A DNA stretch of 64,000 bases from a virus (Duplodnaviria > Heunggongvirae > Uroviricota > Caudoviricetes): IMG/VR virus record IMGVR_UViG_3300045988_010208; one strand, written 5' to 3'. A program made the translations under genes and the position numbers. Below are positions 3 to 58,703 of this stretch, piece by piece. Position 1 is the first letter of the stretch, and every line of letters begins with the position of its first letter. A model generated the notes under the pieces. That model was not told the origin of the DNA, made no database searches, and worked only from the letters and a program-made list of their open reading frames with translations.

Positions 3-5797
<5,795 letters not shown>

Positions 5798-5799
5798 TA

Positions 5800-6966
5800 A
5801 TGGCAGTAGGTGAAATTCAAATTAGTGCCTTGCCTCAAGCAGCCTTACCAATTGACCTTAGTGATATCTTCCATCTTAAGCAGGGTATTGAGGATAAGAG
5901 ATGCACTCTTGAGCAATTACTTGCTCCACACTCAAGCCTAAGAAATAACCCTCACGGTGTTACTAAAACACAAATTGGTTTAGATAACGTTATCAATGCT
6001 CTTCAGTTAGTTGCTGCAAATAACTTATCAGATGTTACTAATGTCACTGAGGCAAGGGCAAATCTACAGATTATGTCTTCAGAAGAGGTTAATAGCCTTG
6101 TCCAACAGCATATTAATGATAAGAGTAATCCACACAATACAACTAAAGCACAGGTTGGTTTAAGTAATGTTCAGAACTGGACAACATCCAACCTTTATAA
6201 TGAAGATGCAGATAAGTACGCTACAGCAAGAGCAGTAAATAACTTGTACAAGGCTGTTCAGGCTTCTTATCCAGTAGGTACTATCCATCTCTCTATGAAT
6301 CCTGCAAACCCTTCTACATATTTAATTTGTGGAGGTACTTGGGAGTTAGTTTCAAGAGGAAGAGCACTTGTAGGTTATGATAGTGCTTCTAGGCCAGTTG
6401 GTAGTAACTTTGGCTCAAGTAGTATTAGTTTATCTAGTAACAACCTACCATCACATAGCCATTCAATCTATCTAACTGGTGGTGGGCATACTCATGGTGC
6501 TACTATTACTATTGATGGCTTTGATTACGGCAATAAGAGCACAAACAGTTTCGATTATGGAACAAAGACCACTAATAGCACTGGTGCTCACACCCACTCA
6601 GTGAGTGGTTCAACAAATACCACAGGTAATCACACACATACTGTAGGTGGTCGTTACGGAGGTGACTCTATTGGTGGTAAACAACGTGTTCAGGTCTCAG
6701 GGACTGCTCAGGTTTCCAGTGTAGCTGGTGACCACTCACACACTATTAGCGGTTCAACAAATACCACAGGCAATCACCAACACACTGTTGCAATTGGTGC
6801 TCACACGCATACTGTTGCAATTGGTGCTCATACCCATAAAGGCACAGTAACTTTGCAGTCATCTGAGCATACTCACTCAGGTACTACAGGCACTACAGGT
6901 GCTGGTCAAGCATTTAGCGTTGAACAACCATCCTTTGTGGTTTATGTATGGCAAAGAACCGCTTAA
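5800..6966 (+). CDS. tail fiber protein with His-rich HxH repeat tip domain
   Basis: 388 aa; C-terminal region carries repeated GAHTHSVSG / GNHTHTVGG / AIGAHTHTV motifs like the metal-coordinating HxH repeats of T4-type fiber tips; C-terminal ~140 aa paralogous to that of the next gene. Confidence 0.6.
   Translation: MAVGEIQISALPQAALPIDLSDIFHLKQGIEDKRCTLEQLLAPHSSLRNNPHGVTKTQIGLDNVINALQLVAANNLSDVTNVTEARANLQIMSSEEVNSLVQQHINDKSNPHNTTKAQVGLSNVQNWTTSNLYNEDADKYATARAVNNLYKAVQASYPVGTIHLSMNPANPSTYLICGGTWELVSRGRALVGYDSASRPVGSNFGSSSISLSSNNLPSHSHSIYLTGGGHTHGATITIDGFDYGNKSTNSFDYGTKTTNSTGAHTHSVSGSTNTTGNHTHTVGGRYGGDSIGGKQRVQVSGTAQVSSVAGDHSHTISGSTNTTGNHQHTVAIGAHTHTVAIGAHTHKGTVTLQSSEHTHSGTTGTTGAGQAFSVEQPSFVVYVWQRTA
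6550..6960 (+). repeat. paralogous tail-fiber tip segment (copy 1)
   Basis: DNA and protein similarity to 9010-9365, e.g. shared GGTGCTCACACCCACTCAGTGAGTGGTTC and GGTGGTCGTTA.GG.GGTGACTCTAT.GGTGGTAAACAACGTGTTCAGGT. Confidence 0.8.
6784..6837 (+). repeat. 27-bp tandem duplication inside fiber tip coding sequence
   Basis: ACTGTTGCAATTGGTGCTCACACGCAT followed immediately by ACTGTTGCAATTGGTGCTCATACCCAT (encodes TVAIGAHTH twice). Confidence 0.8.
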
Positions 6967-7017
6967 AAAATTCTTTTACAGGGGGCTGTATAGCCCTCTT
7001 TCTAGAGGACAAAAATA

Positions 7018-9369
7018 ATGGCAGATTACAAGTTGAGTGAATTAAACTCAATCGATACAATCCGTTCAGATGACCTTCTTCATGTCAGGGTTAAAAAGAG
7101 ACCTGAAATGCTGGGTGATGAAGACCGTCGAATGACCTATCAAGATTTCTTAGCATCTTTTAAGCTTGAAAGATTTGTTCAGATTGCTGGTAGCACTATG
7201 ACGGGTGACTTAGGGATTGTTAAGTTACTTTATGGTGGTAAGGCAGTCTTTGACCCTACAGGCTCTTCTGAGATTAATATTGGGGATGTTTTAAAGACTT
7301 TTAAAATTAACGCAAATGGTCTTAAACTAACTATTGCAGATGCTTCGAGGTCAGCAACTGTTTATCATACTCTGAATAAACCAAGTCCTAATGAACTTGG
7401 GATGAGAACTAATGAAGAGAATGATGCAAGATATGCAAAACTGGCTAACTCGAATACGTTTAAAGCCAAGCAAACTATTACATCGAATGGTGAGATTTTA
7501 ACGCTAGTCACCCCTGCGGAGGCGAGTTCAGCGTACTGTGCCCTTGTAGGTAGAGACGCGAGTAATGAAAAGAATTGGGCTATTGGGAACCTAATTAGAG
7601 GCAGCTTTGATGTTCAAATCAAGAGTAGACAAGGTTCCATCCTCACTCTAGGTACAACTGTAACGATTAATAAGACCCTTGCTGTTGTTGGTCAGGTCAA
7701 ACCTTCTGACTTCTCTAACTTAGATGCTAGATACTTTACTCAGACAGTTGCTAATCAGAGATTTGCACAGTTAGCTGGCAATAACACATTTAGTGGTTCT
7801 AATATTTTCACTAATAATTTTGTTATTAAGAAGAATGCTAATGCTATTACTATTCAAAATGTAGATACAACTACGGCTTTGTATATCCAAGCAAGAAAAT
7901 CAGATGGAGCTAATAAGTGGTACATTGGCAATGACGGTGATGAGAGTATTGTAAACATCTATAACTATTTAGCAAAAACACAAATCTCACTAGGCAACAC
8001 CATTACTATGAGCAAAACAGTCCAAATTGGTGGTCAAGTTCAACCTTCTGATTGGACTAACATTGACTCTAGATATATTCCGGCAGCAACATTAAGTACA
8101 ATTGCAAGAACTAATGCACAAAATACTTTTAATGGTGTACAGAAAGTTGTTACTGATGCTGAAGCCCTAATTGTGAAAAACTATACTCAGAACAGACCAT
8201 TGTATATCCGTGGTGTGGACACTGCTAATGTGTCAAGGTGGTGGGTAGGTGTTGGTGGGGCAGATACTAATGATGTAACACTAAATAACAGTTTTTCTGG
8301 CACTCAGTTAGTTTTAGGTAACTCATCTGCAAGTATCAATAAGACATTAACCCTAGCAGGGCAGATTCAACCCTCAGATTTCTCTAACTTAGATGCCAGA
8401 TACTTTACTCAATCAGCAGCTAATCAGGAATTTATGTATGCAGGTTCCACAGGTACTGGTAGTGAAGTAGGTGATAGTGATGGCATTGCTTGGAATGCTA
8501 AAACTGGTCTGTATAATGTTACAGGTTATGGTGGAGGCTCAACACAACTTGTTTTCCAAATGTATCAGGGTGCAAGCTCTACTCCCTCTGCTCAATTAAA
8601 ATTCAACTACAGGAATGGGGGTTTTTGGTATAGGTCATCAAGGGATGGTTTTGGTTTTGAAGAGGACTTCACACAAATTTATACAGAGAAGTATAAACCA
8701 ACTCCTTCAGCTATTGGTGCATACACTAAAGCAGAGACTGACCAGAAGATTGCAGAAGCGATTAGTGACTCTACAGACCTGAATAAAATCTATCCAGTAG
8801 GGATTGTGACATGGTTTAACAGTAATGTTAACCCTAATACAGCACTCCCTGGGTTAACTTGGACGTATCTGAACAATGGTGTTGGTAGAACTATTAGAAT
8901 TGCAGCAGCAAACGGTTCAGATGTTGCTACAACTGGTGGTTCAGATTCTGTAACGTTATCTGTTGGTAACTTACCTTCACACACTCATAGCTTCTCTGCG
9001 ACTACTTCATCATTTGACTATGGTACTAAAACCACTAACACTACTGGTGCTCACACCCACTCAGTGAGTGGTTCTACTAACAACACTGGTGCTCATACAC
9101 ATACAGTTGGTGGTCGTTATGGTGGTGACTCTATCGGTGGTAAACAACGTGTTCAGGTATCTGGTACAGAACAGGTATCTAGCTCTGCTGGTGCTCACGC
9201 TCACACTGTATCTGGTACTGCTGCCTCTAACGGAAACCATGCTCACACTGTTGGTATTGGTGCTCACAGTCATACAGTTAGTGGTAACACTGGTGGTACA
9301 GGTTCTGGTTCAGCATTTAGTGTAACTAACCAGTTCTATAAGCTGATGGCTTGGGTAAGAACTGCTTAA
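7018..9369 (+). CDS. long tail fiber protein (receptor-binding) with internal repeats and HxH tip domain
   Basis: 783 aa; three internal ~40-aa repeats (..GQVKPSDFSNLDARYFTQ..); C-terminus LPSHTHSFS..GAHTHSVSG..GNHAHTVGIGAHSHTVSG paralogous to 5800-6966. Confidence 0.65.
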   Translation: MADYKLSELNSIDTIRSDDLLHVRVKKRPEMLGDEDRRMTYQDFLASFKLERFVQIAGSTMTGDLGIVKLLYGGKAVFDPTGSSEINIGDVLKTFKINANGLKLTIADASRSATVYHTLNKPSPNELGMRTNEENDARYAKLANSNTFKAKQTITSNGEILTLVTPAEASSAYCALVGRDASNEKNWAIGNLIRGSFDVQIKSRQGSILTLGTTVTINKTLAVVGQVKPSDFSNLDARYFTQTVANQRFAQLAGNNTFSGSNIFTNNFVIKKNANAITIQNVDTTTALYIQARKSDGANKWYIGNDGDESIVNIYNYLAKTQISLGNTITMSKTVQIGGQVQPSDWTNIDSRYIPAATLSTIARTNAQNTFNGVQKVVTDAEALIVKNYTQNRPLYIRGVDTANVSRWWVGVGGADTNDVTLNNSFSGTQLVLGNSSASINKTLTLAGQIQPSDFSNLDARYFTQSAANQEFMYAGSTGTGSEVGDSDGIAWNAKTGLYNVTGYGGGSTQLVFQMYQGASSTPSAQLKFNYRNGGFWYRSSRDGFGFEEDFTQIYTEKYKPTPSAIGAYTKAETDQKIAEAISDSTDLNKIYPVGIVTWFNSNVNPNTALPGLTWTYLNNGVGRTIRIAAANGSDVATTGGSDSVTLSVGNLPSHTHSFSATTSSFDYGTKTTNTTGAHTHSVSGSTNNTGAHTHTVGGRYGGDSIGGKQRVQVSGTEQVSSSAGAHAHTVSGTAASNGNHAHTVGIGAHSHTVSGNTGGTGSGSAFSVTNQFYKLMAWVRTA
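9010..9365 (+). repeat. paralogous tail-fiber tip segment (copy 2)
   Basis: See 6550-6960; about 85% identical stretches at nucleotide level. Confidence 0.8.
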
Positions 9370-34656: not shown

Positions 34657-34855
34657 ACGCATTTGGGAAGGTTTGGTTGTTGATGCACCAGCTATTGTGA
34701 TTGGTATGCTTATTGTTAACCTATTTACTGACTTTGAACAAGGTTCATTGTTTGGAGCCATGTTACTATGGGTTATCTTCGAAATATTAGAGATACAGTT
34801 AGGTATCACTGAAAAACTAAGAGAACTCTTTGCGAAGTTTTCTAAAAAGATTTAA
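34649..34855 (+). CDS. small membrane protein
   Basis: 68-aa hydrophobic ORF. Confidence 0.35.
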   Translation: MLKRIWEGLVVDAPAIVIGMLIVNLFTDFEQGSLFGAMLLWVIFEILEIQLGITEKLRELFAKFSKKI

Positions 34856-38675: not shown

Positions 38676-39161
38676 ATGAATTACATGGAGATTAGACCAT
38701 TTGATACAGCTAATGGTGAAGGGGTTCGTGTAAGCCTCTTCGTAGCTGGTTGTAAGCATCACTGTGAAGGCTGCTTTAACAGGGAGTCTTGGAAGTTTAA
38801 TGCTGGTAAAGAGTTCACTTATGCAAACCTCTATGGAATCATCCAGTTAATGGGTGACGATGCTGTCAGTGGGTTGTCAATACTTGGTGGAGAACCTCTG
38901 GATGATAGAAATATTCAAGAGGTTACCAACATATGCAAACGTATTAAAACTGTTTATCCAGAGAAGTCTATATGGTTATGGACGGGTTTTCAACTACACG
39001 AAAAAATTCACCTAGATGTGATGAAATATGTTGACGTGGTGATTGATGGTAAGTATGATTCATCTAAACCAACAGTTAAACCGTATCGTGGTTCTGATAA
39101 CCAAAACCTCTGGAGAAAAGAGTATGGGTGGCAAGGCGATTGTCAGTGGAGAGCCGAGTAA
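38676..39161 (+). CDS. nrdG: anaerobic ribonucleotide reductase activating protein (radical SAM)
   Basis: 161 aa; radical-SAM cluster motif CKHHCEGCFN (Cx3Cx2C). Confidence 0.85.
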   Translation: MNYMEIRPFDTANGEGVRVSLFVAGCKHHCEGCFNRESWKFNAGKEFTYANLYGIIQLMGDDAVSGLSILGGEPLDDRNIQEVTNICKRIKTVYPEKSIWLWTGFQLHEKIHLDVMKYVDVVIDGKYDSSKPTVKPYRGSDNQNLWRKEYGWQGDCQWRAE

Positions 39162-39227
39162 GTCTCGTCGTAAAGTAGGTTATCGGTAAAGGCCACTTTA
39201 CAATGCTCTACAGAACAAACTTAGCCG

Positions 39228-39545
39228 TTGGTGTCACTGAAGAAGAACTTAAAACATTTTGTGAAAAGATTGAGAGAGAGATACGAAATGGGAATCTGGA
39301 ATAGTTTTAAAGCAAAAGTAAAAGCAGCACTAGCTTCATTAGGTATGCTCACTGGGGTTGATGTGACTCATCTTATGCAGAACTTTAAGATGGATGAGAA
39401 GCTGGCTAATGAGATTATGAAAAGTATCTATGTAGGCCGTGGTAAAGGTGGTAAGAAACAAGCCCACCGTCCGTCTGGTGCAGCAGCTATTAAACGAGCA
39501 GCTAAGAAAGCTCGTAACCGTAAACGTAATAAGAAGGCTAAATAA
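39228..39545 (+). CDS. small basic protein
   Basis: 105-aa ORF; C-terminal tail KRAAKKARNRKRNKKAK; real start may be the internal MGIWNSF Met. Confidence 0.35.
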   Translation: MVSLKKNLKHFVKRLRERYEMGIWNSFKAKVKAALASLGMLTGVDVTHLMQNFKMDEKLANEIMKSIYVGRGKGGKKQAHRPSGAAAIKRAAKKARNRKRNKKAK

Positions 39546-39547
39546 TC

Positions 39548-39868
39548 ATGAGCAAAGTTTATAACACTCGCAAATTACAGATTTTCGTACTGTGTCAGTT
39601 TATGGCTAAAGAATACAATTTCTACTATTGTGGTACAGGTTTCATTAGCGACGATGATGGCTCATACCTCCCATTCAAAGAAGCTGTAAAGCTCTTTAAT
39701 GGAGAGGAAAGCTCTAAGAAAGATATTGAAAAGGTTAAGCTAACCTACAGCAAGAAAGATAAGAAGATTATCTGCCTAGATAACTTTGTAAAAGTTACTG
39801 GAGAAGCAAAAGAGTTTATGGATGAGAGTGAGATTTCATTCACAAGCATCTTGAAAGTAGCTCAGTAA
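39548..39868 (+). CDS. hypothetical protein
   Basis: 106-aa ORF followed by a terminator. Confidence 0.35.
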   Translation: MSKVYNTRKLQIFVLCQFMAKEYNFYYCGTGFISDDDGSYLPFKEAVKLFNGEESSKKDIEKVKLTYSKKDKKIICLDNFVKVTGEAKEFMDESEISFTSILKVAQ

Positions 39869-39881
39869 ACAGATACTATAA

Positions 39882-39906
39882 GGGAACTGTAAAGGTTCCC
39901 TTTTTT
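39882..39906 (+). terminator. intrinsic terminator
   Basis: GGGAAC-UGUAAAG-GUUCCC hairpin followed by UUUUUUAUUUU. Confidence 0.7.
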
Positions 39907-39920
39907 ATTTTGGAGATAAA

Positions 39921-40436
39921 ATGTATCTGTCAAACCTGAAACGTTCGGCTGCAATGTCAGTTCTAAGACTCAGCTTTGAGGAACGTCAAGAGTTCATTGA
40001 CTCCCACCAATACGACCCTTCTAACTCGAATCACATGGTTCTTTGGAATCGTGATAACTTCCGTGAAAGAGCACTTGTCCGTTATTACCCACACTACACA
40101 ATAGATAACCTGTATGAATGGTGCGTTGTGAAGAACACTATTGCAACACTGAACAATCTTTGCAGGTATACAGGTAAGCAAGCATTTACATTAGGCCACC
40201 ACAAACCTGTTACAAAGGGTGGTGAGCATCACTGCGCAAACTGGTTTATCCAGACTAAACTTGATAACCAGAAGCAAGGGGATAATCTTCTAAGCACACC
40301 TAAGATGACCTATGAAGAGCAAGAGAAATATATCAAAAATAATATGCCAGATGTGCTTGACAACAACTATACAGATTTGGCAATATCTCTCCTGTTGAAG
40401 TTCGAGACAGTTTATAGGGCAACTTACAATGGCTAA
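39921..40436 (+). CDS. putative HNH endonuclease
   Basis: 171 aa; GHHKPVTKGGEHHCANWFIQTKLDNQKQG resembles an HNH core. Confidence 0.45.
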   Translation: MYLSNLKRSAAMSVLRLSFEERQEFIDSHQYDPSNSNHMVLWNRDNFRERALVRYYPHYTIDNLYEWCVVKNTIATLNNLCRYTGKQAFTLGHHKPVTKGGEHHCANWFIQTKLDNQKQGDNLLSTPKMTYEEQEKYIKNNMPDVLDNNYTDLAISLLLKFETVYRATYNG

Positions 40437-40707
40437 AGAGAAGTGGGAGATTTTACCATTAGTCAGTGAAGGTGGTAATGGTTGTGAAATGTACATGATA
40501 CGTGGTCATGTTCCAGAACCAATTGCACTTGAGATGGTAAACAACTTTACAGATGGTTCTTACAAAGACTTAGGAGAGCCAACTATAAAGCAGCAATGGG
40601 TAAAGCCTGTACCAGACAGCACAGGTAACTGTAGTGTACTTTATCACGTTGTAGACCCTGCAAAATGCAAATCTGCAATGGCAGTAACAAACGTAACTTT
40701 TGATTGA
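40429..40707 (+). CDS. hypothetical protein
   Basis: 92-aa ORF. Confidence 0.35.
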   Translation: MAKEKWEILPLVSEGGNGCEMYMIRGHVPEPIALEMVNNFTDGSYKDLGEPTIKQQWVKPVPDSTGNCSVLYHVVDPAKCKSAMAVTNVTFD

Positions 40708-41600
40708 GAGAGAAAACTATGAAAACTGTTATTGAAGCCGTCGTCACCGCACAAGAGAAATTCTTCCACACAGAAAAATTTAATATCATTCAATTCCCAT
40801 CTGGAGAAATTGGTGGAAACTTCTCTGAAGATTTTGTTAAGTTTACTGAGCGTAATGCTGGTAAGATTGACAATGTTATACTTACTGTACAGGGATATGA
40901 CAAAGATACACTGTTTGCATTAGCTTTGGCTAAGGATGCCGTTGACAGTCTTGTTCCCCAGAAATCAGCGATGAAAACCGTTGTTTTCGGGTTCTTACCA
41001 AATGCTCGATATGACCGCCACATGTTCAAAGGTGATGCAGCAGCACTGAAAGTCTTTGCCAACCTAGTTAATGCAATGGGCTTTGATGCAGTATGTGCTC
41101 TTGACCCTCACAGCAATGTTGCAGAAAACTTATTTAAGTGCTTTCAGAGCATGAAGCAAAAAGATGTGGCAGTACACTTTGCAAGTGACCCACGCATTGA
41201 TTTCTTGGTAGCCCCAGATGCAGGTGCAGCTAAGAAGACTGAAGATGCCGCTAAAGAGGTGGATAAACCATATATCACAATGGCTAAGGTGCGAAACCTT
41301 AAGACTGGAGAAATCACTGGTATGCGAATCCTTGACGATGTTGATTTGACCGATAAAACTGTCATGATTCTTGATGATATCTGTGATGGTGGTCGAACAT
41401 TCGTAGAGGCAGCTAAACACCTACGTGAAGCAGGTGCAAAACGTGTGGAACTCTATGTAACTCATGGTATTTTCTCTAAAGGTGTTGAAAACTTACTTGA
41501 CAATGGTATTGACCATATCTACACTACAAACACTTTAGGTGAAGCTAAAGACCGTGGCTTAACACATTACGGCCAAGTTACTGTAGCAACCATTGATTGA
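40704..41600 (+). CDS. PRPP synthetase-family protein (ribose-phosphate pyrophosphokinase or ADP-ribose pyrophosphokinase homologue)
   Basis: 298 aa; type I phosphoribosyltransferase-fold PRPP-binding loop VMILDDICDGGRTF; directly upstream of the NAMPT-like gene. Confidence 0.75.
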   Translation: MREKTMKTVIEAVVTAQEKFFHTEKFNIIQFPSGEIGGNFSEDFVKFTERNAGKIDNVILTVQGYDKDTLFALALAKDAVDSLVPQKSAMKTVVFGFLPNARYDRHMFKGDAAALKVFANLVNAMGFDAVCALDPHSNVAENLFKCFQSMKQKDVAVHFASDPRIDFLVAPDAGAAKKTEDAAKEVDKPYITMAKVRNLKTGEITGMRILDDVDLTDKTVMILDDICDGGRTFVEAAKHLREAGAKRVELYVTHGIFSKGVENLLDNGIDHIYTTNTLGEAKDRGLTHYGQVTVATID

Positions 41601-41608
41601 AACTTTAT

Positions 41609-41630
41609 AGGGGCTTGAAAGCCCCATTTT
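41609..41630 (+). terminator. weak terminator-like hairpin / attenuator
   Basis: GGGGC-UUGAAA-GCCCC hairpin followed by AUUUU; weak T-tract. Confidence 0.35.
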
Positions 41631-41645
41631 GAGAGAGATTAAAAG

Positions 41646-43427
41646 ATGACTAAATCACTTTATGCAGTACCAGCAGGTTTAAACGCAGATGCTTACAAAT
41701 CTGGTCATGTTTACCAGTATCCTAGTGCAACAGAGTACTTGATGTTCAACCTGACACCACGTAGCGACAAATGGTTTAACAGCCCTTTAGCAATTGATGG
41801 TGTAGTGGCTTTTGGTATTCAACGTTTTGTTAAAGATTACTTGATAGACCACTGGAACGCCACTTTCTTTGAACGTGATAAAAAAGAAGCAATTGACGAA
41901 ATCTTAGAAGTCATGAATGGTGTTCTGGGTAAAGATGCTATCGGTCGAGAGCATTGGGAAGCACTTCACGACTTAGGTTATCTGCCAGTTGAAGTATACG
42001 CTGTAGAAGAAGGCACAGTTGTCCCGATGCGTGTCCCAATGATTGTCTTCCAGAACACTGTTTCAGGTTTCCATTGGGTAGCAGGTTATCTGGAAGATGC
42101 TTTCTCTGCTGAGATTTGGAAGGCTTGCACCATTGCAACTATCGCATTGCACTACAAACGTATCTGTAAGAAGTGGGCTGACCTTACTTGCGACAACGAC
42201 TTACATTTACCTTATCAGTGCCATGACTTTGCTATGCGTGGTATGTCCGGCTTTACTGATGACGCATTTAACGCTGTAGGCCACTTAACCAGCTTTAAAG
42301 GAACTGATAGCTTCCCTGCTGTATACACGGCTAAACGCATCTATGGACAGTCTTACCCAATCTGTGATATTGGTAGCTCTGTACCAGCCACTGAACACTC
42401 TGTAATGTGTGCAAACATTGCTTGGGGAGGTGGTAATGAACTGATTGAAGAAGAAAGACGCTTTAAAGGTGAGTTACAAACCTTCCGTCGTTTCTTAACA
42501 GAAACTTACCCAACTGGTATTGCAAGTATTGTTTCAGATACTTATAACTTCTGGAGAACTGTGTCAGAAATCTTACCAGCACTCCGTAAAGAAATTATGG
42601 AACGTGATGGCAAACTGGTAATTCGTCCTGACTCTGGAGACCCTGTACATATTGTCACAGGTTATAAAGCAATCCACTTAGAGTGTGCTAAGAAGGCTTA
42701 TTATGAGCACCTAAGCAAGCTGGAAGCCAGTGACACAATGTTGAATGCTGTTCTGAACATGAAGCTTGAAAACATCAGCTATGGTATTGCTGGATGGCTA
42801 CTGTCAGAAGGCTACGAAATGGTTGTTGACAGAGAAGACTTTGAAGCTGCTGATACAGTGATGTTGAAAAATGCTTATATGGTTGGTTCTGCAAACGTTG
42901 TAACACGCCCTGTAGCTGAGATTGATGGAGCTATTAAGACACTGTACAACATCTTTGGGGGAACTATTAACTCTAAAGGGTTTAAGGTACTGGATGAGCA
43001 CATCGGCCTTATCTATGGTGACTCTATCACGCTGGAACGTGCAAACGAAATCCTGAAGCGTCTGTATGAAATGGGTTTTGCAAGCTCTAACGTAGTGTTT
43101 GGTGTAGGTTCTTACACTTACCAGTACATGACTCGTGACACCTTTGCATTTGCTGTCAAAGCAACTCTTGCAAGCATTGGTGGTAAAGAGATTATGCTTG
43201 CAAAAGACCCTAAAACAGATAGTGGTGTTAAGAAATCTGCCTTTGGTGGTGTAGCACCTATGTGGGATGGGGATAAGCTGAAAGCTGTAGATGGCTATGG
43301 ATTCCAGAGTTTTGCAGATGCACTTGACCACCCAGCTTGTGCTTTACGTTTAGTCTTTAGCGACTCTGAGCAGTTCGGTTACACAACTCTTGGTGATATT
43401 CGAAATAATATTGACAAGCAGCTTTAA
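41646..43427 (+). CDS. nadV: nicotinamide phosphoribosyltransferase-family protein (NAMPT/NadV-like)
   Basis: 593 aa; size and position match phage NadV-type genes paired with a Prs homologue; family call is by recognition, no motif verified. Confidence 0.7.
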   Translation: MTKSLYAVPAGLNADAYKSGHVYQYPSATEYLMFNLTPRSDKWFNSPLAIDGVVAFGIQRFVKDYLIDHWNATFFERDKKEAIDEILEVMNGVLGKDAIGREHWEALHDLGYLPVEVYAVEEGTVVPMRVPMIVFQNTVSGFHWVAGYLEDAFSAEIWKACTIATIALHYKRICKKWADLTCDNDLHLPYQCHDFAMRGMSGFTDDAFNAVGHLTSFKGTDSFPAVYTAKRIYGQSYPICDIGSSVPATEHSVMCANIAWGGGNELIEEERRFKGELQTFRRFLTETYPTGIASIVSDTYNFWRTVSEILPALRKEIMERDGKLVIRPDSGDPVHIVTGYKAIHLECAKKAYYEHLSKLEASDTMLNAVLNMKLENISYGIAGWLLSEGYEMVVDREDFEAADTVMLKNAYMVGSANVVTRPVAEIDGAIKTLYNIFGGTINSKGFKVLDEHIGLIYGDSITLERANEILKRLYEMGFASSNVVFGVGSYTYQYMTRDTFAFAVKATLASIGGKEIMLAKDPKTDSGVKKSAFGGVAPMWDGDKLKAVDGYGFQSFADALDHPACALRLVFSDSEQFGYTTLGDIRNNIDKQL

Positions 43428-43440
43428 AAGTATATGATAA

Positions 43441-43464
43441 GAGGCTCCTACGGGAGCCTTTTTA
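43441..43464 (+). terminator. intrinsic terminator
   Basis: GGCUCC-UACG-GGAGCC hairpin followed by UUUUU; ends the two-gene NAD-salvage unit. Confidence 0.7.
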
Positions 43465-43480
43465 ATTTCTGGAGAAAGAT

Positions 43481-43786
43481 ATGAAAATCAAAGAGATGAA
43501 CATTAACGTTGTCCTAGAAGAACGTTGGGAAAACATTAAGAAACCTGAAGATGGTAAAAAGTTCCTTAACAAAATTTTAGTAGCAGCTAAAGAAGAACTG
43601 ACTGGCAAGATTGCAGCAGCAATCACAATAAAAGTCTGTGTAAAAGGTCTTCCACAACATCACCAATTTGCACTTGACGAGTTTAAAGAAAGCTTCTACA
43701 ATCCAAACAAACAGATACTTGAAAGTAACTTTGCAGTGTCTACAAGTATCGTCCATGACAGAAGCTTTATCCTTTACAAAACATGA
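43481..43786 (+). CDS. hypothetical protein
   Basis: 101-aa ORF. Confidence 0.4.
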   Translation: MKIKEMNINVVLEERWENIKKPEDGKKFLNKILVAAKEELTGKIAAAITIKVCVKGLPQHHQFALDEFKESFYNPNKQILESNFAVSTSIVHDRSFILYKT

Positions 43787-43796
43787 GAGGTGAGTC

Positions 43797-43973
43797 ATGC
43801 AAGCATATTGGATAGAAATTTTACTGTCACTTGGTAGTGTAGCAGTATTTGTTTACCTTCTTTGCAAGTACTATGCAGAGCACAAGAAGTGTGACTACTG
43901 TAACGGAGAAGGGTACACAAGAGCAGGCTGTTGCCCTATGTGTGGTGGTTCTGGTAAAATGTTTAATAAGTAA
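43797..43973 (+). CDS. possible small membrane-anchored Cys-rich (zinc-finger) protein, 58 aa
   Basis: Not in ORF track; GAGGTGA RBS; my translation MQAYWIEILLSLGSVAVFVYLLCKYYAEHKKCDYCNGEGYTRAGCCPMCGGSGKMFNK (CxxCxGxG + CxxCxGxG). Confidence 0.4.
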   Translation: MQAYWIEILLSLGSVAVFVYLLCKYYAEHKKCDYCNGEGYTRAGCCPMCGGSGKMFNK

Positions 43974-44001
43974 TTTAACAGTAAACTAAGAGGAAAGTAT
44001 T

Positions 44002-46368
44002 ATGCGCATGGTAAATGACCACGCAGAAGTGATTAAGAGTTCAACTTCTTTGGAGACATCTCAAGCACAGATTACAATGACACCTGAAATGTTCAGCCTT
44101 CTGAGTTCTGGTGTATACACATTCAAAGAAAGGGCAGTGATTCGTGAACTGTCATGTAATGCAGTAGATGCTCAGAAAGAAGCTGGAAAAGAGAACATCC
44201 CATTCCATGTGCATTTACCTACTCGATTTGAGCCTTACTTTGAAGTCCGTGACTTTGGAACTGGTTTAACCCATGACAAAGTAATGAGTTTGTACCTGAA
44301 CTACGGGGCTTCTACGAAGAATGACTCTAATGATTACATTGGTGCAATGGGTATCGGCTCAAAATCACCATTTGCAATTGCTCAGTCATTCACAGTGTCT
44401 AGCTATGTTGATGGTGTTGTTAATAAGTACTCTGTTTACCTTGAGAATGGTATCCCTCAAGTAACTAAGCTTACTACTAACCCAACAAATGAACCTAATG
44501 GCTTAGCTGTACGTGTGGCAGTTGCTGACCACCGTATTTCAAAGTTCTTTGAAGAGGCTGGTCACGTATACTCATACTTTGCTGTAAAACCAGAAAGTAA
44601 CATTGTATATGATGATGTGTTAGCAGATATGAACGTCATTGCTCGTGAAGAAGGTGTTTATGATGCCATGATTCATAAGCAAAGCTGGCGTTCTAGTGGT
44701 AACAGGACAGAGTTTAATGTGGTGATGGGTAATATTGCCTATCCAGTGAACATGGAAGCATTACTTGGTGATGATTTCTTCAAAGTCTTGCCAGAGTTTT
44801 TCCGTAGGAGCGTAGACCTTGTAAACATTTACATGCCTATTGGTTCAGTCGCTATTGCAGCTTCTCGTGAAGCATTGCAGATGAATGATACGACAAAAAA
44901 TGTTATCATTGAGGCTACTAAAAAGATAACTGAAGCAATTACAAAGGATGTTATCAAGAAAGTTAATAGCCAACCTACACTCATGGATGCTGCACAGGCT
45001 TATGCAGAGTTACGTTTGAACTCACGAGAAATGTTTAATGCTGTGTGTCCAAAGCTAGAGTGGGGAGGTGTTAAGCTTGATTCTCTGGAAGAAGAATTGC
45101 TAAACATTCGTCGTGGGATTATCTACGCAGAAGACGGCTCAGTCATTTATGAACGTGACGGTAAAGGTAATATCAAGGTTGATAGGAACGGGAACAATAT
45201 CCCTAAAGTGGATTATCTTTATAATCCAGTTGCTTATGTCAAGTTCAACTCTTTAGAGAGTAAGATTCGTGCAACAGCACTTTCCTACACTCAAGAGGCA
45301 AGTATGTTCAATATCTTTGGTGCAATGCGTAAAAGCCAAATTGAACAGTTTTTGTTCGTGATAAATGACCGTCGTAATAAAAATGGCACTGAGAAGACTG
45401 TAGGCCGCAATCAGATTCTGCGTGGTGCATGTCGAGATTACGCCAATGAGTCAAATCTGTTTCACAGATACAATGGTATTGTGTTTGTATTCTCGACTGA
45501 AAAAGAGTTAGATGATTTAATCAACCTGCATAAACTTGATAAAAGTTTGTTAAAGATTGTGAAAATGTCTGATAAGGAGCACCATTACCAGCGTAAAGAA
45601 GCTGTCAGGGGTGTTGTAAAACTCTGGAAAGCAGTTCCGGCAGAAGGTGTAGCCTCCTACAAAGAGGTGTCAGAAGACTTAGACACAATTGAAGAACCTC
45701 AGCTTTACATTAAGGCAGTTGGTGACACAGTTGATGGCGAATGTTTTTGCTCATCTCCAGAAGATGTAGCTAAGTCAGTTGCTAATGTTATAGGGAAGAC
45801 AGTCTATGTTTTCCGAAAAGCAAATTGGAAAAAGATACCAGAAGACTGGATTGAAGTAGATGAGAAGCTCTTGAACGACAGCTTAACTGATGTTCATTGG
45901 ATTAATCATAACAGGTATATGACACGCATCTACATGAATGGTGTTCTTGACCTTACAAGCAGTTGGATTATTGCCAGAAACTTTACATTCAATAACAGGA
46001 AGATTTCTCGTGGCTATTGCTATTCACGAGATACTAGCAAAACTATCTTCCTAGAAGGTAATGAAGAGGCTGTAGAGGCTATGTTCGGTAAAATCCAGTA
46101 TGTTGCTGCACCGTTTGCATACACTTACACTATTAGTAGATTGCAAACTTTGAAAGAATGCCTTGACAATGATACAAAACTGTACAAGAAAATTAAGAAA
46201 GCTGGTGACCGCATGGTCATTAAGGTGACAAACTACCTTTCAAAAAGAAAACAAGAGAACTTCTTGCTTTCTCATTTAGATTGGAATAAAGTGTCACCCA
46301 TCGAAGTGAGTAAGTTCTTAGGCTTTGATGTGAAGTGTGTTCCAGAAGGGACTACAATTTACGATTAA
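44002..46368 (+). CDS. rIIA: rIIA-like protein with N-terminal GHKL-type ATPase motifs
   Basis: 788 aa; N-terminal RELSCNAVDAQ, RDFGTGL and GAMGIGSKSPF boxes as in T4 rIIA / GHKL ATPases. Confidence 0.65.
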   Translation: MRMVNDHAEVIKSSTSLETSQAQITMTPEMFSLLSSGVYTFKERAVIRELSCNAVDAQKEAGKENIPFHVHLPTRFEPYFEVRDFGTGLTHDKVMSLYLNYGASTKNDSNDYIGAMGIGSKSPFAIAQSFTVSSYVDGVVNKYSVYLENGIPQVTKLTTNPTNEPNGLAVRVAVADHRISKFFEEAGHVYSYFAVKPESNIVYDDVLADMNVIAREEGVYDAMIHKQSWRSSGNRTEFNVVMGNIAYPVNMEALLGDDFFKVLPEFFRRSVDLVNIYMPIGSVAIAASREALQMNDTTKNVIIEATKKITEAITKDVIKKVNSQPTLMDAAQAYAELRLNSREMFNAVCPKLEWGGVKLDSLEEELLNIRRGIIYAEDGSVIYERDGKGNIKVDRNGNNIPKVDYLYNPVAYVKFNSLESKIRATALSYTQEASMFNIFGAMRKSQIEQFLFVINDRRNKNGTEKTVGRNQILRGACRDYANESNLFHRYNGIVFVFSTEKELDDLINLHKLDKSLLKIVKMSDKEHHYQRKEAVRGVVKLWKAVPAEGVASYKEVSEDLDTIEEPQLYIKAVGDTVDGECFCSSPEDVAKSVANVIGKTVYVFRKANWKKIPEDWIEVDEKLLNDSLTDVHWINHNRYMTRIYMNGVLDLTSSWIIARNFTFNNRKISRGYCYSRDTSKTIFLEGNEEAVEAMFGKIQYVAAPFAYTYTISRLQTLKECLDNDTKLYKKIKKAGDRMVIKVTNYLSKRKQENFLLSHLDWNKVSPIEVSKFLGFDVKCVPEGTTIYD

Positions 46369-50907: not shown

Positions 50908-51693
50908 ATGGGTATTGTAAAAATTATCAATGGCGATATCTTTGACGCATTTGATAAAGGTAAGTTTGACATCATTGGTCATGGTTGCAACTGTATGAAT
51001 TTCATGGGTGCAGGTATTGCAGCAACTATTTCTAAGCGTTATCCAAAAGTGTATGATACTGATACAGAAGTTTACCTGTTTGCAGGTGGCATTCGTCACA
51101 AACCCTGTGAAAATTTACTAGGCAATTTCTCTGTAGCACGTTTAAAACAAGGTCGTATAGCTAACCTTTACACCCAACTTCATACTGGTAAAGATGCCCG
51201 ATACAGTGCTTTAGAGTCATCTTTGAAACAGCTTAACAGATACTGTGAAGTTAACCAGTTGAAGAAAGTTGGCCTGCCTATGATTGGTGCAGGTATCGGT
51301 GGACTTGACCCTCAAGCTGTCACAGTTATCATCAATCAGGTGATGAAGAGCGTAGATGTTTACCTGTATGTCTACGAGGCAGAGATGTACAACAAGTTAC
51401 ACTCAGGTTGGAAGAACTACTGTGAACCAGAATACTTTGCGGGTGTAGTAGTGTTCACAGACAACACAGTTACCCTCTTCAGACGAAGAAAAGGTAAGAT
51501 ACATCAAAGTAACCCTCCGGTTGAAAAGATGTCTCTAAGTAACGCTCTAGTTACCCACCTGTCGAAGAGCAATCACAGAATTGCAGTAACATTTGGCAGT
51601 GATGCAGATACATATATCTATGCAAGAACTGATGAGGATGTTGAGGAAATTTTCTCTTCACCAGAAGTTACCTTCTTAGACGCAAAGAACTAA
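50908..51693 (+). CDS. macro-domain-like protein (putative ADP-ribose binding/processing)
   Basis: 261 aa; N-terminal IINGDIF...IIGHGCNCMNFMGAGIAATISKRYP pattern typical of macro/Appr-1-p-type domains; C-terminal 100 aa unassigned. Confidence 0.5.
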   Translation: MGIVKIINGDIFDAFDKGKFDIIGHGCNCMNFMGAGIAATISKRYPKVYDTDTEVYLFAGGIRHKPCENLLGNFSVARLKQGRIANLYTQLHTGKDARYSALESSLKQLNRYCEVNQLKKVGLPMIGAGIGGLDPQAVTVIINQVMKSVDVYLYVYEAEMYNKLHSGWKNYCEPEYFAGVVVFTDNTVTLFRRRKGKIHQSNPPVEKMSLSNALVTHLSKSNHRIAVTFGSDADTYIYARTDEDVEEIFSSPEVTFLDAKN

Positions 51694-56988: not shown

Positions 56989-57025
56989 ACGCCGCAACGG
57001 GGCTAAATAGCCCCAGATACCTTAA

Positions 57026-57051
57026 CAGCCCCGTTTAAGGGGCTTTTTTAC
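57026..57051 (+). terminator. intrinsic terminator ending the plus-strand array
   Basis: AGCCCC-GUUUAA-GGGGCU hairpin followed by UUUUUU; preceded by a cassette-like GGGGCT-AAAT-AGCCCC remnant (56999-57014). Confidence 0.65.
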
Positions 57052-58703
57052 GTCTATCAAATTCCTTTCCAGAATCTTAAAACCCACCTAACAAGTCAGA
57101 ACTTTACCACTGATTCGATAGAATCTATCCCAGACCTTAAAAAATAATAACTCTATAGTCTACTCTATAGCATTTTATCAAATCAACTTAAATATAAGCC
57201 CATAACCCGAAAGGGAAGGGCAACCCCTTAAACGCTCTATAAAGCTCTATAACAGCCTTATCAACCTAACTTAAGCAATCATATTAACCCACTCTAAAAA
57301 GCCCTTCCTAGAGCTTCCCAGAGCCTTAAAAGAATCTTATAAGGGTGTAAGCTTTATCATCTCGTTAGTATTCTTGTGAATATCTAAAAAGGACTTGTTA
57401 GTGTCTTAAAAGTATGTTATAGGGGCTTAAAAGTTACGTAAAAGTAGCTTAAAAGTTACGTAAATGCTAGCCCCCTTAACATTTTCTTAACAATTTCTTA
57501 ACAAACCCTACATAGTTATGCTTTTAAGGCACTTGTTAGCCCCTTGTTAAATCTCTGTTAAGACCACGTAAAAGCCTTGTAAGAGTCTTTGACATAGCCT
57601 TTAAAGCTCCTGTAAAGCCCTATAAAGAGGTGTCTGTATAGTTGGGGTGTAACTACTAGGAAGAGACTTAAAAGGGGCTATACAGAGCTTTTAAGAGGGC
57701 TATTTAGAGAATCACTAAGAGGAGAAGGGAACGATAAGAAAGAAGAGTTGTGTTTGTAAACAACCACTGTGACCATGTTAATAGCTTGTTAAAAAGATTA
57801 AACACTTGTTAGAAACTTGTTAATTATCTTAACAAAATAACTCTTTAAAATTAACTTGTTAGCTCTTGTTAGTCATCTGTTAAGATTCTGTAAAGCCTAT
57901 TCAGCACTTGTTAGGAAACTGTTACAGCCTTGTTAGTTCTGTTAAGAAACTGTTAAGACCTTTGAAGAGTTGTTAAGAAGATGTGAGAACTGTTAAGAGA
58001 TTGTTAAGGATATTTTAAAATTTTGCAAAGTACTTGTAAGGGAGCTGTTAAGGGCTACCAAGCAGATATACATCTTCTACAGATATTTTTGAGTTCCTTC
58101 AAAGACCCTAAAAAATGACTTGATAGTCCTATTTTATAAAAATTTTAAGATTTTGAATAATTACCTATACAGTCTTTTAAAAATACAGGTAGAAACAGGC
58201 TTATAAGATACCTTGTTAATACCGTGTTAGACCTTGTGAGATAAGGTCTGTAAAGATATTCCTGTTAAGTTTGTTAAAACAGTCTATATAGAGGTTTAGT
58301 AATACCTAGTGAACACCTATAGAGGGTATCATAGCTGACATAATGGGTTACTGTTAAGTAACACAGATAACCTAGAGATTAAGAGGTGTATAGGAGCTTC
58401 TAAGAGGGTGTAGAGGGATGATTAAGGTGATTGTATAGGTTGTTAAGAAGGCTTGTTAGAAGAGTGTTTAGAAGGCTTGTTAGAGGGCTAGTTAGAAGGG
58501 TTATACAGAGGGGCTATTAAGACCACTAGATAGTTACTAAGATACTATATAGTACTATATAACTATATAGAGAGTAAGATTAAGAAGGTTGTTAAGAAGG
58601 GTAGATATTTTATTCACATATGATGGTGACCCAGAGGTTGGGACAACCAATAAAATTTTATAAAAATTAAAAAGCCCCCAATTAAGGAGGCTCTTAAGAT
58701 ATT
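57052..58703. repeat. ORF-free region dense in short degenerate direct repeats
   Basis: About 1.65 kb with no ORF of 60 aa or more on either strand; roughly 35 copies of YTGTTARR (CTTGTTAG, CTGTTAAG, TTGTTAAG), many CTATAKAG-type copies, a 17-bp direct repeat CTTAAAAGTTACGTAAA x2 near 57428-57465, TATATAG clusters near 58540-58570. Confidence 0.8.

Follow-up and report, generated by a model that had tools for sequence, protein, structure and literature searches.

The closest described system is the operon formed by genes 79-80 of phage Bas63 (JohannRWettstein), in which NAD+ reconstitution pathway 1 (NARP1) was discovered (Osterman et al., bioRxiv 10.1101/2024.02.11.579819). With a deletion inside these genes, Bas63 plaqued ~20-fold worse on SIR2-HerA and NAD+ depletion was more severe; ADPR-pyrophosphate (ADPR-PP; m/z 720.010) was detected only with wild-type Bas63 plus the defence system, and the rescue—partial with respect to NAD+—was independent of host pncC and nadR (bioRxiv 10.1101/2024.02.11.579819). 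Because the Bas63 protein purified poorly, the in vitro chemistry was done with SPbetaL1 proteins: the gene-79 homologue gave no product in a Prs-type assay and converted ADP-ribose (ADPR) and ATP to ADPR-PP (bioRxiv 10.1101/2024.02.11.579819). Both enzyme activities have been shown in vitro for homologues only (SPbetaL1, Gary), and SPbetaL1 NARP1 combines biochemistry with Namat crystal structures (9W5W/9W5X; PMC12774641). Type I Thoeris, DSR1, DSR2 and SEFIR all lose their effect in the presence of NARP1, unlike type II Thoeris, which does not deplete NAD+. NARP1-AP, composed of Adps-Adpp-Namat, is described from Vibrio phage Gary and from Achelous, which is closely related to it (bioRxiv 10.64898/2026.01.28.702374), and NARP2 of Vibrio phage KVP40 pairs a Nampt/NadV with a bifunctional enzyme that is both NMN adenylyltransferase and Nudix.

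Here, we analyzed 64,000 nucleotides of phage DNA (the window) carrying adps (40719-41600, +) and namat (41646-43427, +), a pair that very likely constitutes a NARP1 operon acting in counter-defence via ADPR and ADPR-PP to NAD+. Judged by sequence, the module itself is already known, as it represents a 99%-identical copy of an experimentally studied phage operon. The NAD+-restoring counter-defence role proposed in the initial annotation is thereby supported, as it is by the deletion phenotype of Bas63 genes 79-80. In the proposed mechanism, a host defence system (SIR2-HerA, type I Thoeris, DSR1/2 or SEFIR) would split NAD+ into ADPR and nicotinamide, Adps would move pyrophosphate from ATP onto the free ribose of ADPR to form ADPR-PP, and Namat would swap the pyrophosphate of ADPR-PP for nicotinamide, yielding NAD+ directly, with no need of NMN or of the host's salvage enzymes.

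Genomic context and transcription unit

The source genome is a Felixounavirus, the window DNA matching 259 FelixO1-like phage records (top match 97.7%). Flanked by nrdD/nrdG and rIIA, adps and namat lie in a region devoted to nucleotide metabolism, and synteny from nrdD/nrdG to rIIA/rIIB is identical in the window and Bas63. Both genes have the same orientation and are separated by 45 nt (41601-41645), in agreement with the earlier description of a 298-aa ORF lying 45 nt upstream of a 593-aa NAMPT-family ORF on the same strand. As called, the adps ORF indeed spans 40704-41600 (+) and encodes 298 aa from a TTG. That TTG overlaps the stop codon of the preceding ORF, whereas an ATG at 40719 is preceded by a Shine-Dalgarno-like run, GAGAGAGA, which also precedes the namat ATG; moreover, public records begin the protein at ATG 40719. 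The likely adps start is therefore this ATG (293 aa), with the 298-aa version corresponding to the alternative start.

The terminator closest to adps on its upstream side is an intrinsic-terminator-like hairpin at 39880-39902 (+; 9-bp stem, then a T run; −15.1 kcal/mol, z −3.8; 0/200 shuffles equally stable), which ends the preceding unit. Directly 5′ of it and abutting it, a consensus scan located promoter-like hexamers (TTGAAA-17-TACTAT; 39851-39879, +; 9/12 matches) as a possible start of the transcription unit, and this promoter-plus-hairpin arrangement was seen again at 34830 and 43411 on the plus strand and at 63489 and 61421 on the minus strand. Downstream, a strong intrinsic-terminator-like hairpin at 43439-43462 (+; 10-bp stem; −16.6 kcal/mol, z −3.3; 0/200 shuffles equally stable) closes the adps-namat unit, and further promoter-like hexamers (TTGACA-16-TATGAT; 43411-43438, +) adjoin it. 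Given strong terminators at these two places, the unit comprises four ORFs (39921-40436, 40429-40707, adps and namat) and probably begins near 39880. The pair had originally been read as a single unit closed by a strong terminator; the terminator is there, but the predicted unit also takes in the two upstream ORFs, and the gap between adps and namat is not free of structure.

Folding the 45-nt gap as RNA (−12.6 kcal/mol, z −3.5) revealed a hairpin at 41610-41625 (+), GGGGCU-UGAA-AGCCCC followed by AUUUUG, the stem of which is invariant in Bas63 and Mooglevirus Sf14. It failed the terminator scan for having too few U residues, and this weak hairpin may act as a leaky terminator or contribute to RNA stability. 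In FelixO1, a T7 gp3.8-like ORF is inserted into the adps-namat gap.

The two upstream ORFs might be accessory to NAD+ reconstitution, for example in sensing or regulation, making this a four-gene module. The region 39902-43439 contains no strong terminator, its ORFs are tightly packed (8-nt overlap or 11-nt spacing), and the arrangement is kept in Felixounavirus and Mooglevirus. The first ORF (39921-40436, +; 171 aa), a homologue of bas63_0077 that overlaps the next by 8 nt, matched phrog_3500 (E 3e-93) and, with weak HNH-like similarity, phrog_2214 (HNH endonuclease; E 5e-6), and in Pfam DUF7167 alone, sub-threshold. The second (40429-40707, +; 92 aa), a homologue of bas63_0078 stopping 11 nt short of the adps ATG, matched phrog_4726 (E 3e-60) and nothing in Pfam. 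However, the 92-aa protein is confined to Ounavirinae (tblastn: 231 phage records, all FelixO1-like) and absent beside NARP1 of other lineages; the neighbors differ in SPbetaL1, FADO and Achelous; the Bas63 phenotype arose from a deletion within genes 79-80 alone; and SPbetaL1 NARP1 works as two genes after transfer to another phage. We consequently consider a four-gene module improbable and retain the two-gene NARP1 operon.

Adps, Namat and their predicted chemistry

By homology to Bas63_0079, to which it is identical at 289/293 positions (98.6%; four substitutions), Adps is a predicted ADP-ribose pyrophosphokinase of the Prs-homologous type. It carries the type I phosphoribosyltransferase ribose-phosphate-binding loop VMILDDICDGGRTF (41361-41402, +; residues 215-228), confirming by direct reading the PRPP-binding loop of the initial annotation; Pfam Pribosyltran matched here (E 9e-12; residues 165-254 in the 298-aa numbering). 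Alignment places the catalytic lysine at Lys190 (41286-41288, +), equivalent to K162 of SPbetaL1 Adps and K197 of B. subtilis Prs; a mutation at this position is given in the methods of the Osterman preprint (bioRxiv 10.1101/2024.02.11.579819). Further matches were to TIGR01251 (E 6e-40; 137 bits, cut-off 113) and phrog_619 (E 8e-99).

Namat (593 aa), a Nampt homologue and by homology to Bas63_0080 a predicted nicotinamide ADP-ribose transferase, differs from the latter by seven substitutions (586/593 identical, 98.8%). It matched Pfam NAPRTase (E 3e-35), NF006629 (E 2e-140) and phrog_448 (E 2e-201); for both genes, profile matches of this strength exclude chance. Among solved structures, SPbetaL1 Namat (9w5w/9w5x; E 5e-128) is its closest relative, and its AF2 model (pLDDT 93.2) retrieved Namat crystal structures as top Foldseek matches (target TM-score 0.95). 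The predicted catalytic His251 (PATEHSV; 42396-42398, +) forms an invariant column in a 34-sequence alignment; H243A is the inactivating mutant of Gary Namat in the aRES preprint. Regular-expression search and mapping placed the selectivity-clamp helix motif, GSYTYQYMTRD, at 43107-43139 (+; residues 488-498), in line with the published Namat signature GSXoXoXoTRD with aromatic residues (PMC12774641), although its third small-residue position is Met rather than the usual Asn or Val. The equivalent stretches read GGALLQKVDRD in Xcc Nampt and GAQTYQRNTRD in H. ducreyi NadV. The β1-β2 loop of the clamp, TPRSDKWFNSPLAIDG (41754-41801, +; residues about 37-52), is identical to that of Bas63, with K42 aligning with SPbetaL1 R40; under the published rule that Lys/Tyr at the third position leaves the fourth residue to stack, as in Bas63 (PMC12774641), W43 is the proposed adenine-stacking residue. 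Finally, a lineage-specific insertion of ~85 aa, Ins2 (42666-42926, +; residues about 341-427), forms a small α/β domain between RPDSGDPVHIVTG and GAIKTLYNIFGG.

Generic profile libraries label the pair as Prs plus nicotinate/nicotinamide phosphoribosyltransferase, with TIGR01251 and NF006629 above cut-off. Such labels would fit classical salvage: a genuine PRPP synthetase would be encoded by gene 1, and a NadV/Nampt that forms NMN from PRPP and nicotinamide by gene 2, with host NadR/PncC routes completing NAD+, or with the extra PRPP mainly feeding phage nucleotide synthesis in the nrd neighborhood. Matches to Pfam Pribosyltran, Pribosyl_synth, NAPRTase and NAMPT_N, the gene names in GenBank records, the location between nrdD/nrdG and rIIA, and the PRPP-dependent NMN formation that Namat keeps in vitro all speak in its favor. 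Yet the housekeeping Prs equivalog models all scored far under cut-off for Adps (e.g., 113 bits vs 296), and BLAST ranked Achelous (Gary-type) Adps (129 bits) and SPbetaL1 Adps (95) above E. coli Prs (66); in sequence, validated Adps proteins are thus nearer to it than E. coli Prs is. The aromatic clamp motif is present here and absent from bona fide Nampt/NadV, the corresponding part of Bas63 has no annotated NMN adenylyltransferase, and in the Bas63 and SPbetaL1 studies Bas63 beat SIR2-HerA even when the host had neither pncC nor nadR, ADPR-PP accumulated in vivo, and the SPbetaL1 gene-79 homologue gave no product in the Prs-type assay. Classical salvage has thus largely been refuted for the Bas63 orthologues already, and we regard it as very improbable here.

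Near-identity to the studied operon, GSYTYQYMTRD, the K42-W43 loop and the Adps scores together point to the two-step NARP1 pathway instead of Prs/NadV salvage. Hence the initial annotation, which had named both chemistries as candidates, was too cautious in stating that sequence alone cannot say which applies; the Bas63 results (phenotype, ADPR-PP, pncC/nadR independence) settle the chemistry it had left open.

A macro-domain protein downstream of the operon

A new side lead is a 261-aa macro-domain protein (50908-51693, +) encoded 7.5 kb downstream of the operon and unlinked to it, a homologue of bas63_0095 ('putative phosphatase'). By sequence, its family includes both NARP1-associated Adpp and T4 AdfM, making it a candidate Adpp (ADPR-1''-phosphate phosphatase) and/or AdfM-like de-ADP-ribosylase. 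RES-type NAD+ phosphorolysis in aRES defence generates ADPR-1''-phosphate. As an extension of the NARP1 reading rather than an exclusive rival, the protein might turn ADPR-1''-phosphate into ADPR and feed Adps in a NARP1-AP-like pathway in trans, so that the phage also resists aRES; we deem this possible but doubtful.

Beyond the macro domain itself (Pfam Macro: 30 bits, cut-off 22), an HMM of 15 NARP1-operon Adpp sequences (aRES preprint, Table S1) matched the protein end to end (110 bits, E 2e-33) as its sole match among 541 window ORF segments. Against Gary Adpp, which has been verified biochemically, and its almost identical homologue in Achelous, the protein shows 28-29% identity; against Otagovirus-type and Bobbio Adpp, the figure is 33-35%. 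His25 aligns with H24 of Gary Adpp, which H24A inactivates (aRES preprint). Since the published survey scanned two genes each side of NARP1, a macro gene 7.5 kb away would escape it; the preprint's table has no Escherichia, Salmonella or Felix phage among its entries.

Against this extension, T4 Tk.4, reported as the anti-DarTG2 macrodomain AdfM, scored 107 bits with the same profile, and T4-like Tk.4 proteins are the closest homologues outside Ounavirinae (35-39% identity). By sequence, the best solved relatives are OARD1/TARG1 (E 5e-6), Poa1p matching weakly (E 0.01), and the protein has an additional C-terminal region of ~100 aa besides lacking operon linkage. T4 is not known to carry NARP1.

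Comparison with known systems

Bacterial chromosomes harbor adjacent Prs-like and Namat-like genes (Paenibacillus pfNARP1, PMC12774641; a Klebsiella michiganensis locus), the Klebsiella pair being the closest non-phage relatives found (47% and 48% identity; aromatic at motif position 3). These pairs lie in a core-genome context beside a divergent NrtR-type (Nudix + WHD_NrtR) regulator, and their Namat-like protein (496 aa) lacks the Ins2 of the window Namat. E. coli Prs (b1207), Xanthomonas campestris 7YQO and Haemophilus ducreyi 9KE8 share folds and catalytic cores with the window pair and are matched by the same generic HMMs; however, identity between Adps and E. coli Prs is only 26-28%, and in bacterial Nampt/NadV motif positions 3 and 7 are not aromatic. 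In KVP40 NARP2, too, a phage Nampt-family enzyme restores NAD+ against NAD+-depleting defences, although NARP2 uses PRPP and NMN instead of ADPR-PP, requires NMNAT and has no Adps partner, whereas the window has both an Adps partner and a Namat-type clamp motif.

The window has homologues of the Gary/Achelous NARP1-AP Adps (39% identity, 129 bits), of its Namat and of its macro protein, the last with the catalytic His conserved. In NARP1-AP, adps and namat flank the macro gene; in the window, the two genes on either side of the operon include no macro gene, and the distant homologue bears the extra C-terminal region. SPbetaL1 NARP1, in which adps likewise precedes namat, has the Adps catalytic Lys, the Namat catalytic His/Arg/Asp and GSXoXoXoTRD in common with the window, and each SPbetaL1 Namat residue contacting NAD+ is conserved or conservatively replaced. 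Identity to the window proteins is about 29-32% (Adps) and 47% (Namat), the window Namat is ~100 aa longer (Ins1, residues 258-275; Ins2), its clamp loop has K42-W43 versus R40, and SPbetaL1 adps and namat overlap at their junction, without the gap or hairpin seen here.

Bas63, finally, differs from the window by the few substitutions given above and, downstream of namat, by bas63_0081/0082 (one extra small gene) in place of a single 101-aa ORF. Genus, synteny, the 45-nt gap with its hairpin, the Namat insertions and the clamp residues are all alike, and by this analogy the window proteins would be expected to act like their Bas63 orthologues.

The gene pair and its counterpart in phage Bas63

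Two neighbouring plus-strand ORFs, at 40704–41600 (298 aa from a TTG start) and 41646–43427 (593 aa), lie 45 nt apart in the ORF list, and the first contains a type I phosphoribosyltransferase loop, VMILDDICDGGRTF, read directly from the sequence at 41361–41402 (+). Profile searches matched the first gene to Pfam Pribosyltran (E 9e-12) and Pribosyl_synth (E 3e-10), TIGR01251 (E 6e-40) and phrog_619 (E 8e-99), and the second to Pfam NAPRTase (E 3e-35) and NAMPT_N, NF006629 (E 2e-140) and phrog_448 (E 2e-201), leaving no room for a chance resemblance of either gene to its family. A Prs-family gene thus stands directly beside a Nampt-family gene on the same strand of a phage genome, as in NARP1 (NAD+ reconstitution pathway 1), where Adps makes ADPR-pyrophosphate (ADPR-PP) from ADP-ribose (ADPR) and ATP, and Namat adds nicotinamide to give NAD+. 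Because the TTG at 40704 shares bases with the TGA stop of the upstream ORF, GAGAGAGA precedes an ATG at 40719 (with the same purine run before the namat ATG), and public records begin Adps at the corresponding ATG, adps more likely spans 40719–41600 and encodes 293 aa. The two ORFs, their spacing and the loop reported in the initial annotation stand, and its length of 298 aa probably gives way to the shorter product.

A megablast search with 40429–43786 returned 259 phage records, nearly all FelixO1-like, with a top identity of 97.7%. One of these records is Escherichia phage JohannRWettstein (Bas63), to whose bas63_0079 and bas63_0080 the two proteins are identical at 289/293 and 586/593 positions, and the gene order (nrdD, nrdG, small ORFs, the pair, small ORFs, rIIA, rIIB) is common to both genomes. 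The four substitutions in Adps and seven in Namat presumably change nothing. Among the other matches, the 147-kb record of Staphylococcus phage SA1 (GU169904.1, 116715–120073) contains a FelixO1-type region at 95.9% identity and two Campylobacter-labelled records likewise match this region; such records are probably mixed assemblies or carry the wrong label.

NARP1 was first found in Bas63, as genes 79–80 (Osterman et al., bioRxiv 10.1101/2024.02.11.579819), and the present pair is orthologous to these two genes, whose counter-defence effect has been demonstrated. In that work, a deletion that began at codon 28 of gene 79 and ended at codon 302 of gene 80 lowered plaque numbers ~20-fold in the presence of SIR2-HerA, NAD+ depletion was more severe with the mutant, rescue of NAD+ by Bas63 NARP1 was partial, and ADPR-PP (m/z 720.010) was seen only when wild-type Bas63 met the defence system (10.1101/2024.02.11.579819). 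Wild-type Bas63 also still beat SIR2-HerA when the host had neither pncC nor nadR, which shows that its rescue does not depend on NMN salvage by the host (10.1101/2024.02.11.579819). As the Bas63 protein purified poorly, the enzymology relied on homologues from the Bacillus phage SPbetaL1: Adps gave no product in a Prs-type assay and made ADPR-PP from ADPR and ATP, and Namat turned ADPR-PP and nicotinamide into NAD+ (10.1101/2024.02.11.579819). Both reactions have been followed in vitro with SPbetaL1, Gary and Paenibacillus homologues only. NARP1 likewise overcomes type I Thoeris, DSR1, DSR2 and SEFIR, but not type II Thoeris, which does not deplete NAD+; the discoverers of NARP1 counted 859 phage genomes that carry it, or 4.3% of those examined.

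This near-identity to an operon of tested phenotype supports the NAD+-restoring counter-defence role that the initial annotation had proposed. Public annotation labels the pair as Prs and NadV, generic HMM cut-offs permit the same reading, and Namat retains PRPP-dependent NMN synthesis in vitro, all of which would suit classical Prs/NadV salvage; as the main role of the pair, however, such salvage is at odds with the Bas63 genetics and metabolomics. The initial annotation had also held that sequence could not tell the two chemistries apart. That question is now resolved in favour of NARP1, by the near-identity to Bas63 and by the Namat motif described below, with the enzyme activities of the two proteins themselves predicted from sequence.

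Class of the Adps and Namat proteins

In the profile-HMM comparison that the initial annotation had proposed, Adps scored 52–113 bits against the Prs equivalog models of NCBIfam, far below every one of their cut-offs (296–536), with NF002095 the best at 113 bits versus 296; the broad subfamily model TIGR01251 was the sole Prs model passed (137 versus 113). BLAST scores were higher with Adps of the Vibrio phage Achelous (Gary-type; 129 bits), SPbetaL1 Adps (95) and a Namat-linked Klebsiella homologue (159) than with E. coli Prs (66). On BLAST bits and HMM scores, the protein thus groups with validated Adps over housekeeping Prs. In raw identity it is about equally far from SPbetaL1 Adps (29–32%) and E. 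coli Prs (26–28%), and its assignment therefore rests mainly on near-identity to Bas63. Its catalytic Lys190, in an AKVRN segment, aligns to K162 of SPbetaL1 Adps and K197 of B. subtilis Prs. A search for a solved Adps structure matched Prs entries only (best E 2e-18) and found no Adps structure paper; because such a structure is absent, the tests for Adps are weaker than those for Namat.

For Namat, a structural paper of 2026 (PMC12774641) defines the features that separate it from Nampt. The core residues H251 (the catalytic His), R327 and D329—the latter two equivalent to SPbetaL1 R306 and D308—are invariant in 34 homologues, and all 20 NAD+-contacting residues of SPbetaL1 Namat are identical or conservatively replaced. 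The Namat clamp motif reads GSYTYQYMTRD (residues 488–498, including Y490 and Y494), with Met at the third small-residue position, typically Asn or Val. The corresponding segments of the Nampt comparators, GGALLQKVDRD in Xanthomonas campestris and GAQTYQRNTRD in Haemophilus ducreyi NadV, lack the aromatic residues of the motif. A variable loop in Namat supplies a further residue that stacks on adenine, either an Arg at position 3 or the residue following a Lys/Tyr (PMC12774641). Here, the residue aligned to SPbetaL1 R40 is K42, with W43 directly after it, identical to the arrangement described for Bas63 Namat (PMC12774641), in which the AlphaFold3 model of that paper predicts stacking of the W43-type residue on adenine. 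Our AlphaFold2 model of the protein, built with 34 homologues (pLDDT 93.2), matched Namat crystal structures first (target TM-score 0.95), then H. ducreyi NadV and then mammalian NAMPT. The Namat-type clamp motif sets the protein apart from the Nampt/NadV class of classical salvage or NARP2, and no NMNAT or Nudix domain was found in the ORFs neighbouring the pair (Pfam) or annotated in the matching Bas63 region.

Two insertions, Ins1 (residues ~258–275) and Ins2 (residues ~341–427, between RPDSGDPVHIVTG and GAIKTLYNIFGG), are absent from SPbetaL1 and FADO Namat and from Nampt. A comparison with Namat of Pseudomonas phage M5.1 (590 aa) gave no support for a shared origin of Ins2: the same two loops carry insertions there, and the sequences align unconvincingly.

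Outside phages, the closest relatives found for the pair lie on a Klebsiella michiganensis chromosome (4211–7491 of the locus examined), where the Adps-like and Namat-like proteins are 47% and 48% identical and the latter (496 aa) has an aromatic residue at position 3 of the clamp motif. Their neighbourhood is core genome (crp, a PRK-family kinase gene, kefB-like, slyX), and a divergent NrtR-type regulator (Nudix plus WHD_NrtR) adjoins them. NrtR is ADPR-responsive, and its position would fit ADPR-induced recycling of ADPR; it is not mentioned in the published NARP1 descriptions that we examined.

Transcription unit and surrounding sequence

The terminator that the initial annotation placed after the second gene at about 43441–43464 is present, its exact position being 43439–43462 (10-bp stem, −16.6 kcal/mol, z −3.3, 0/200 shuffles folding as well). 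The closest terminator upstream of adps is at 39880–39902 (−15.1 kcal/mol, z −3.8), and two plus-strand ORFs, a 171-aa ORF with weak HNH-like similarity (39921–40436) and a 92-aa ORF (40429–40707), are tightly packed between it and adps; the unit bounded by strong terminators therefore comprises four ORFs, and its transcript would run from near 39886 to 43462. A functional module of all four genes is nonetheless not supported: NARP1 loci elsewhere have different neighbours, and two genes were enough when NARP1 was transferred into another phage. As a candidate conserved accessory of NARP1, the 92-aa ORF was rejected, since tblastn found it restricted to FelixO1-like phages with no cross-lineage association. 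The 171-aa ORF contains a stretch resembling HNH (GHHKPVTKGGEHHCANW...N) and weakly matches HNH endonucleases in PHROG (E 5e-6), and it is kept across Felixounavirus and Mooglevirus, unlike sporadic homing endonucleases.

Promoter-like hexamers abut the terminator hairpin at both ends of the unit (39851–39902 and 43411–43462). A transcript initiated at these hexamers would miss the hairpin's 5′ arm and continue past it; one arriving from upstream would end there. Across the window, sigma-70-like hexamers abut strong terminator hairpins at at least five sites (34830, 39851–39902 and 43411–43462 on the plus strand; 63489 and 61421 on the minus strand), in what looks like a compact, insulator-like arrangement.

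The 45-nt gap between adps and namat also folds well (−12.6 kcal/mol, z −3.5), with a GC-rich hairpin at 41610–41625 (GGGGCU-UGAA-AGCCCC, then AUUUUG) whose U residues are too few for the terminator scan to accept it. Its stem is identical in Bas63 and in Mooglevirus Sf14, the proteins of which are 76–82% identical; being invariant in the three sequences compared, it offers no covariation, which neither supports nor contradicts an RNA element. The hairpin may be a leaky terminator or a stabilising element. In FelixO1, a T7 gp3.8-like ORF occupies the gap (5681–6172 of the locus compared), and a gene for an HNH homing endonuclease also falls within the aligned interval in LinBro and ekra. Directly downstream of the operon, where 43428–43800 was compared with 7053–7738 of the Bas63 locus, Bas63 has two small genes of 114 and 111 aa and the window a single 101-aa ORF, a difference that amounts to an indel of ~350 bp.

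Farther along, where plus- and minus-strand genes meet, 1.7 kb (57010–58700) contain no ORF of ≥40 aa on either strand. GC skew reverses near 57600, and there are 32 plus-strand copies of the motif YTGTWAR in this interval versus ~3 expected, often at a spacing of 10–11 nt. tRNA and Rfam scans of the window, this interval included, gave no match. The interval is an iteron-like array that may serve as an origin or a regulator-binding region.

A macro-domain gene apart from the operon, and re-annotation

Some NARP1 operons carry accessory genes, either RyDEP, a RyR-domain glycosidase, or Adpp, a macro-domain ADPR-1″-phosphate phosphatase through which NARP1 (then NARP1-AP) copes with the RES-type defence aRES. 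No RyR domain (PF02026) was found in the ORFs flanking the present pair, and no macro domain in the two ORFs on either side (by hmmscan, which is less sensitive than the HHpred used by the aRES authors), so the pair lacks the macro-domain neighbour within two genes that marks NARP1-AP. A profile that we built from 15 Adpp sequences encoded within NARP1 operons (listed in the aRES preprint, Table S1) likewise had no match within 39000–45000. Its sole match in the window, end-to-end at 110 bits, was a 261-aa protein encoded at 50908–51693 (+), 7.5 kb downstream of namat and homologous to the 'putative phosphatase' bas63_0095.

At its N terminus this protein carries a macro domain (30 bits in Pfam, cut-off 22), and ~100 of its C-terminal residues lie outside any recognised domain. 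It is 28% identical to Adpp of phage Gary (the assayed enzyme), 29% to that of Achelous, which differs from Gary Adpp at two residues, and 33–35% to Adpp of Otagovirus-type phages and Pectobacterium phage Bobbio. Its His25 aligns to H24 of Gary Adpp, the residue mutated (H24A) to inactivate that enzyme in the aRES preprint; the same phage thus encodes a macro domain of the Adpp family that retains the catalytic His. The preprint scanned only two genes on each side of NARP1, and Escherichia, Salmonella and Felix phages are absent from its table; this gene would have gone uncounted.

The profile failed to separate Adpp from AdfM, the anti-DarTG2 macrodomain reported for T4 Tk.4: Tk.4 scored 107 bits versus 110, shares 33% identity with the window protein and 35% with Gary Adpp, and T4-like Tk.4 proteins are the nearest homologues outside Ounavirinae. 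The two published functions thus fall within one sequence family, which might serve both anti-DarTG2 and anti-aRES roles. Because Adpp and AdfM score alike, the role of the window protein may, by sequence, be anti-aRES, anti-DarT2 or both. A tentative reading, which we consider rather doubtful, is that Felixounaviruses (this one and Bas63) carry at 50908–51693 an unlinked third NARP1-AP enzyme; ADPR-1″-phosphate made by aRES would then be converted in trans to ADPR, the substrate of Adps. If so, NARP1-AP would be commoner than the published 15% of NARP1 phages, a share that includes macro genes only where they lie no more than two genes from the operon. The consequence would be modest: the presence of Adpp decides whether aRES stops a NARP1 phage, and operon-only surveys could therefore mispredict host range.

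The main finding needs no new biology, and the value of the check is practical. Records as well as Pfam/NCBIfam cut-offs still say 'ribose-phosphate pyrophosphokinase' and 'nicotinamide/nicotinate phosphoribosyltransferase', generic labels that hide a counter-defence system of hundreds of FelixO1-like phages, some of them used in therapy or typing. Presence of the Namat motif together with failure of the Prs equivalog models offers a simple sequence rule for re-annotation. The system itself is already known: NARP1 was described in 2024 from an operon that is 99% identical to this one in protein.
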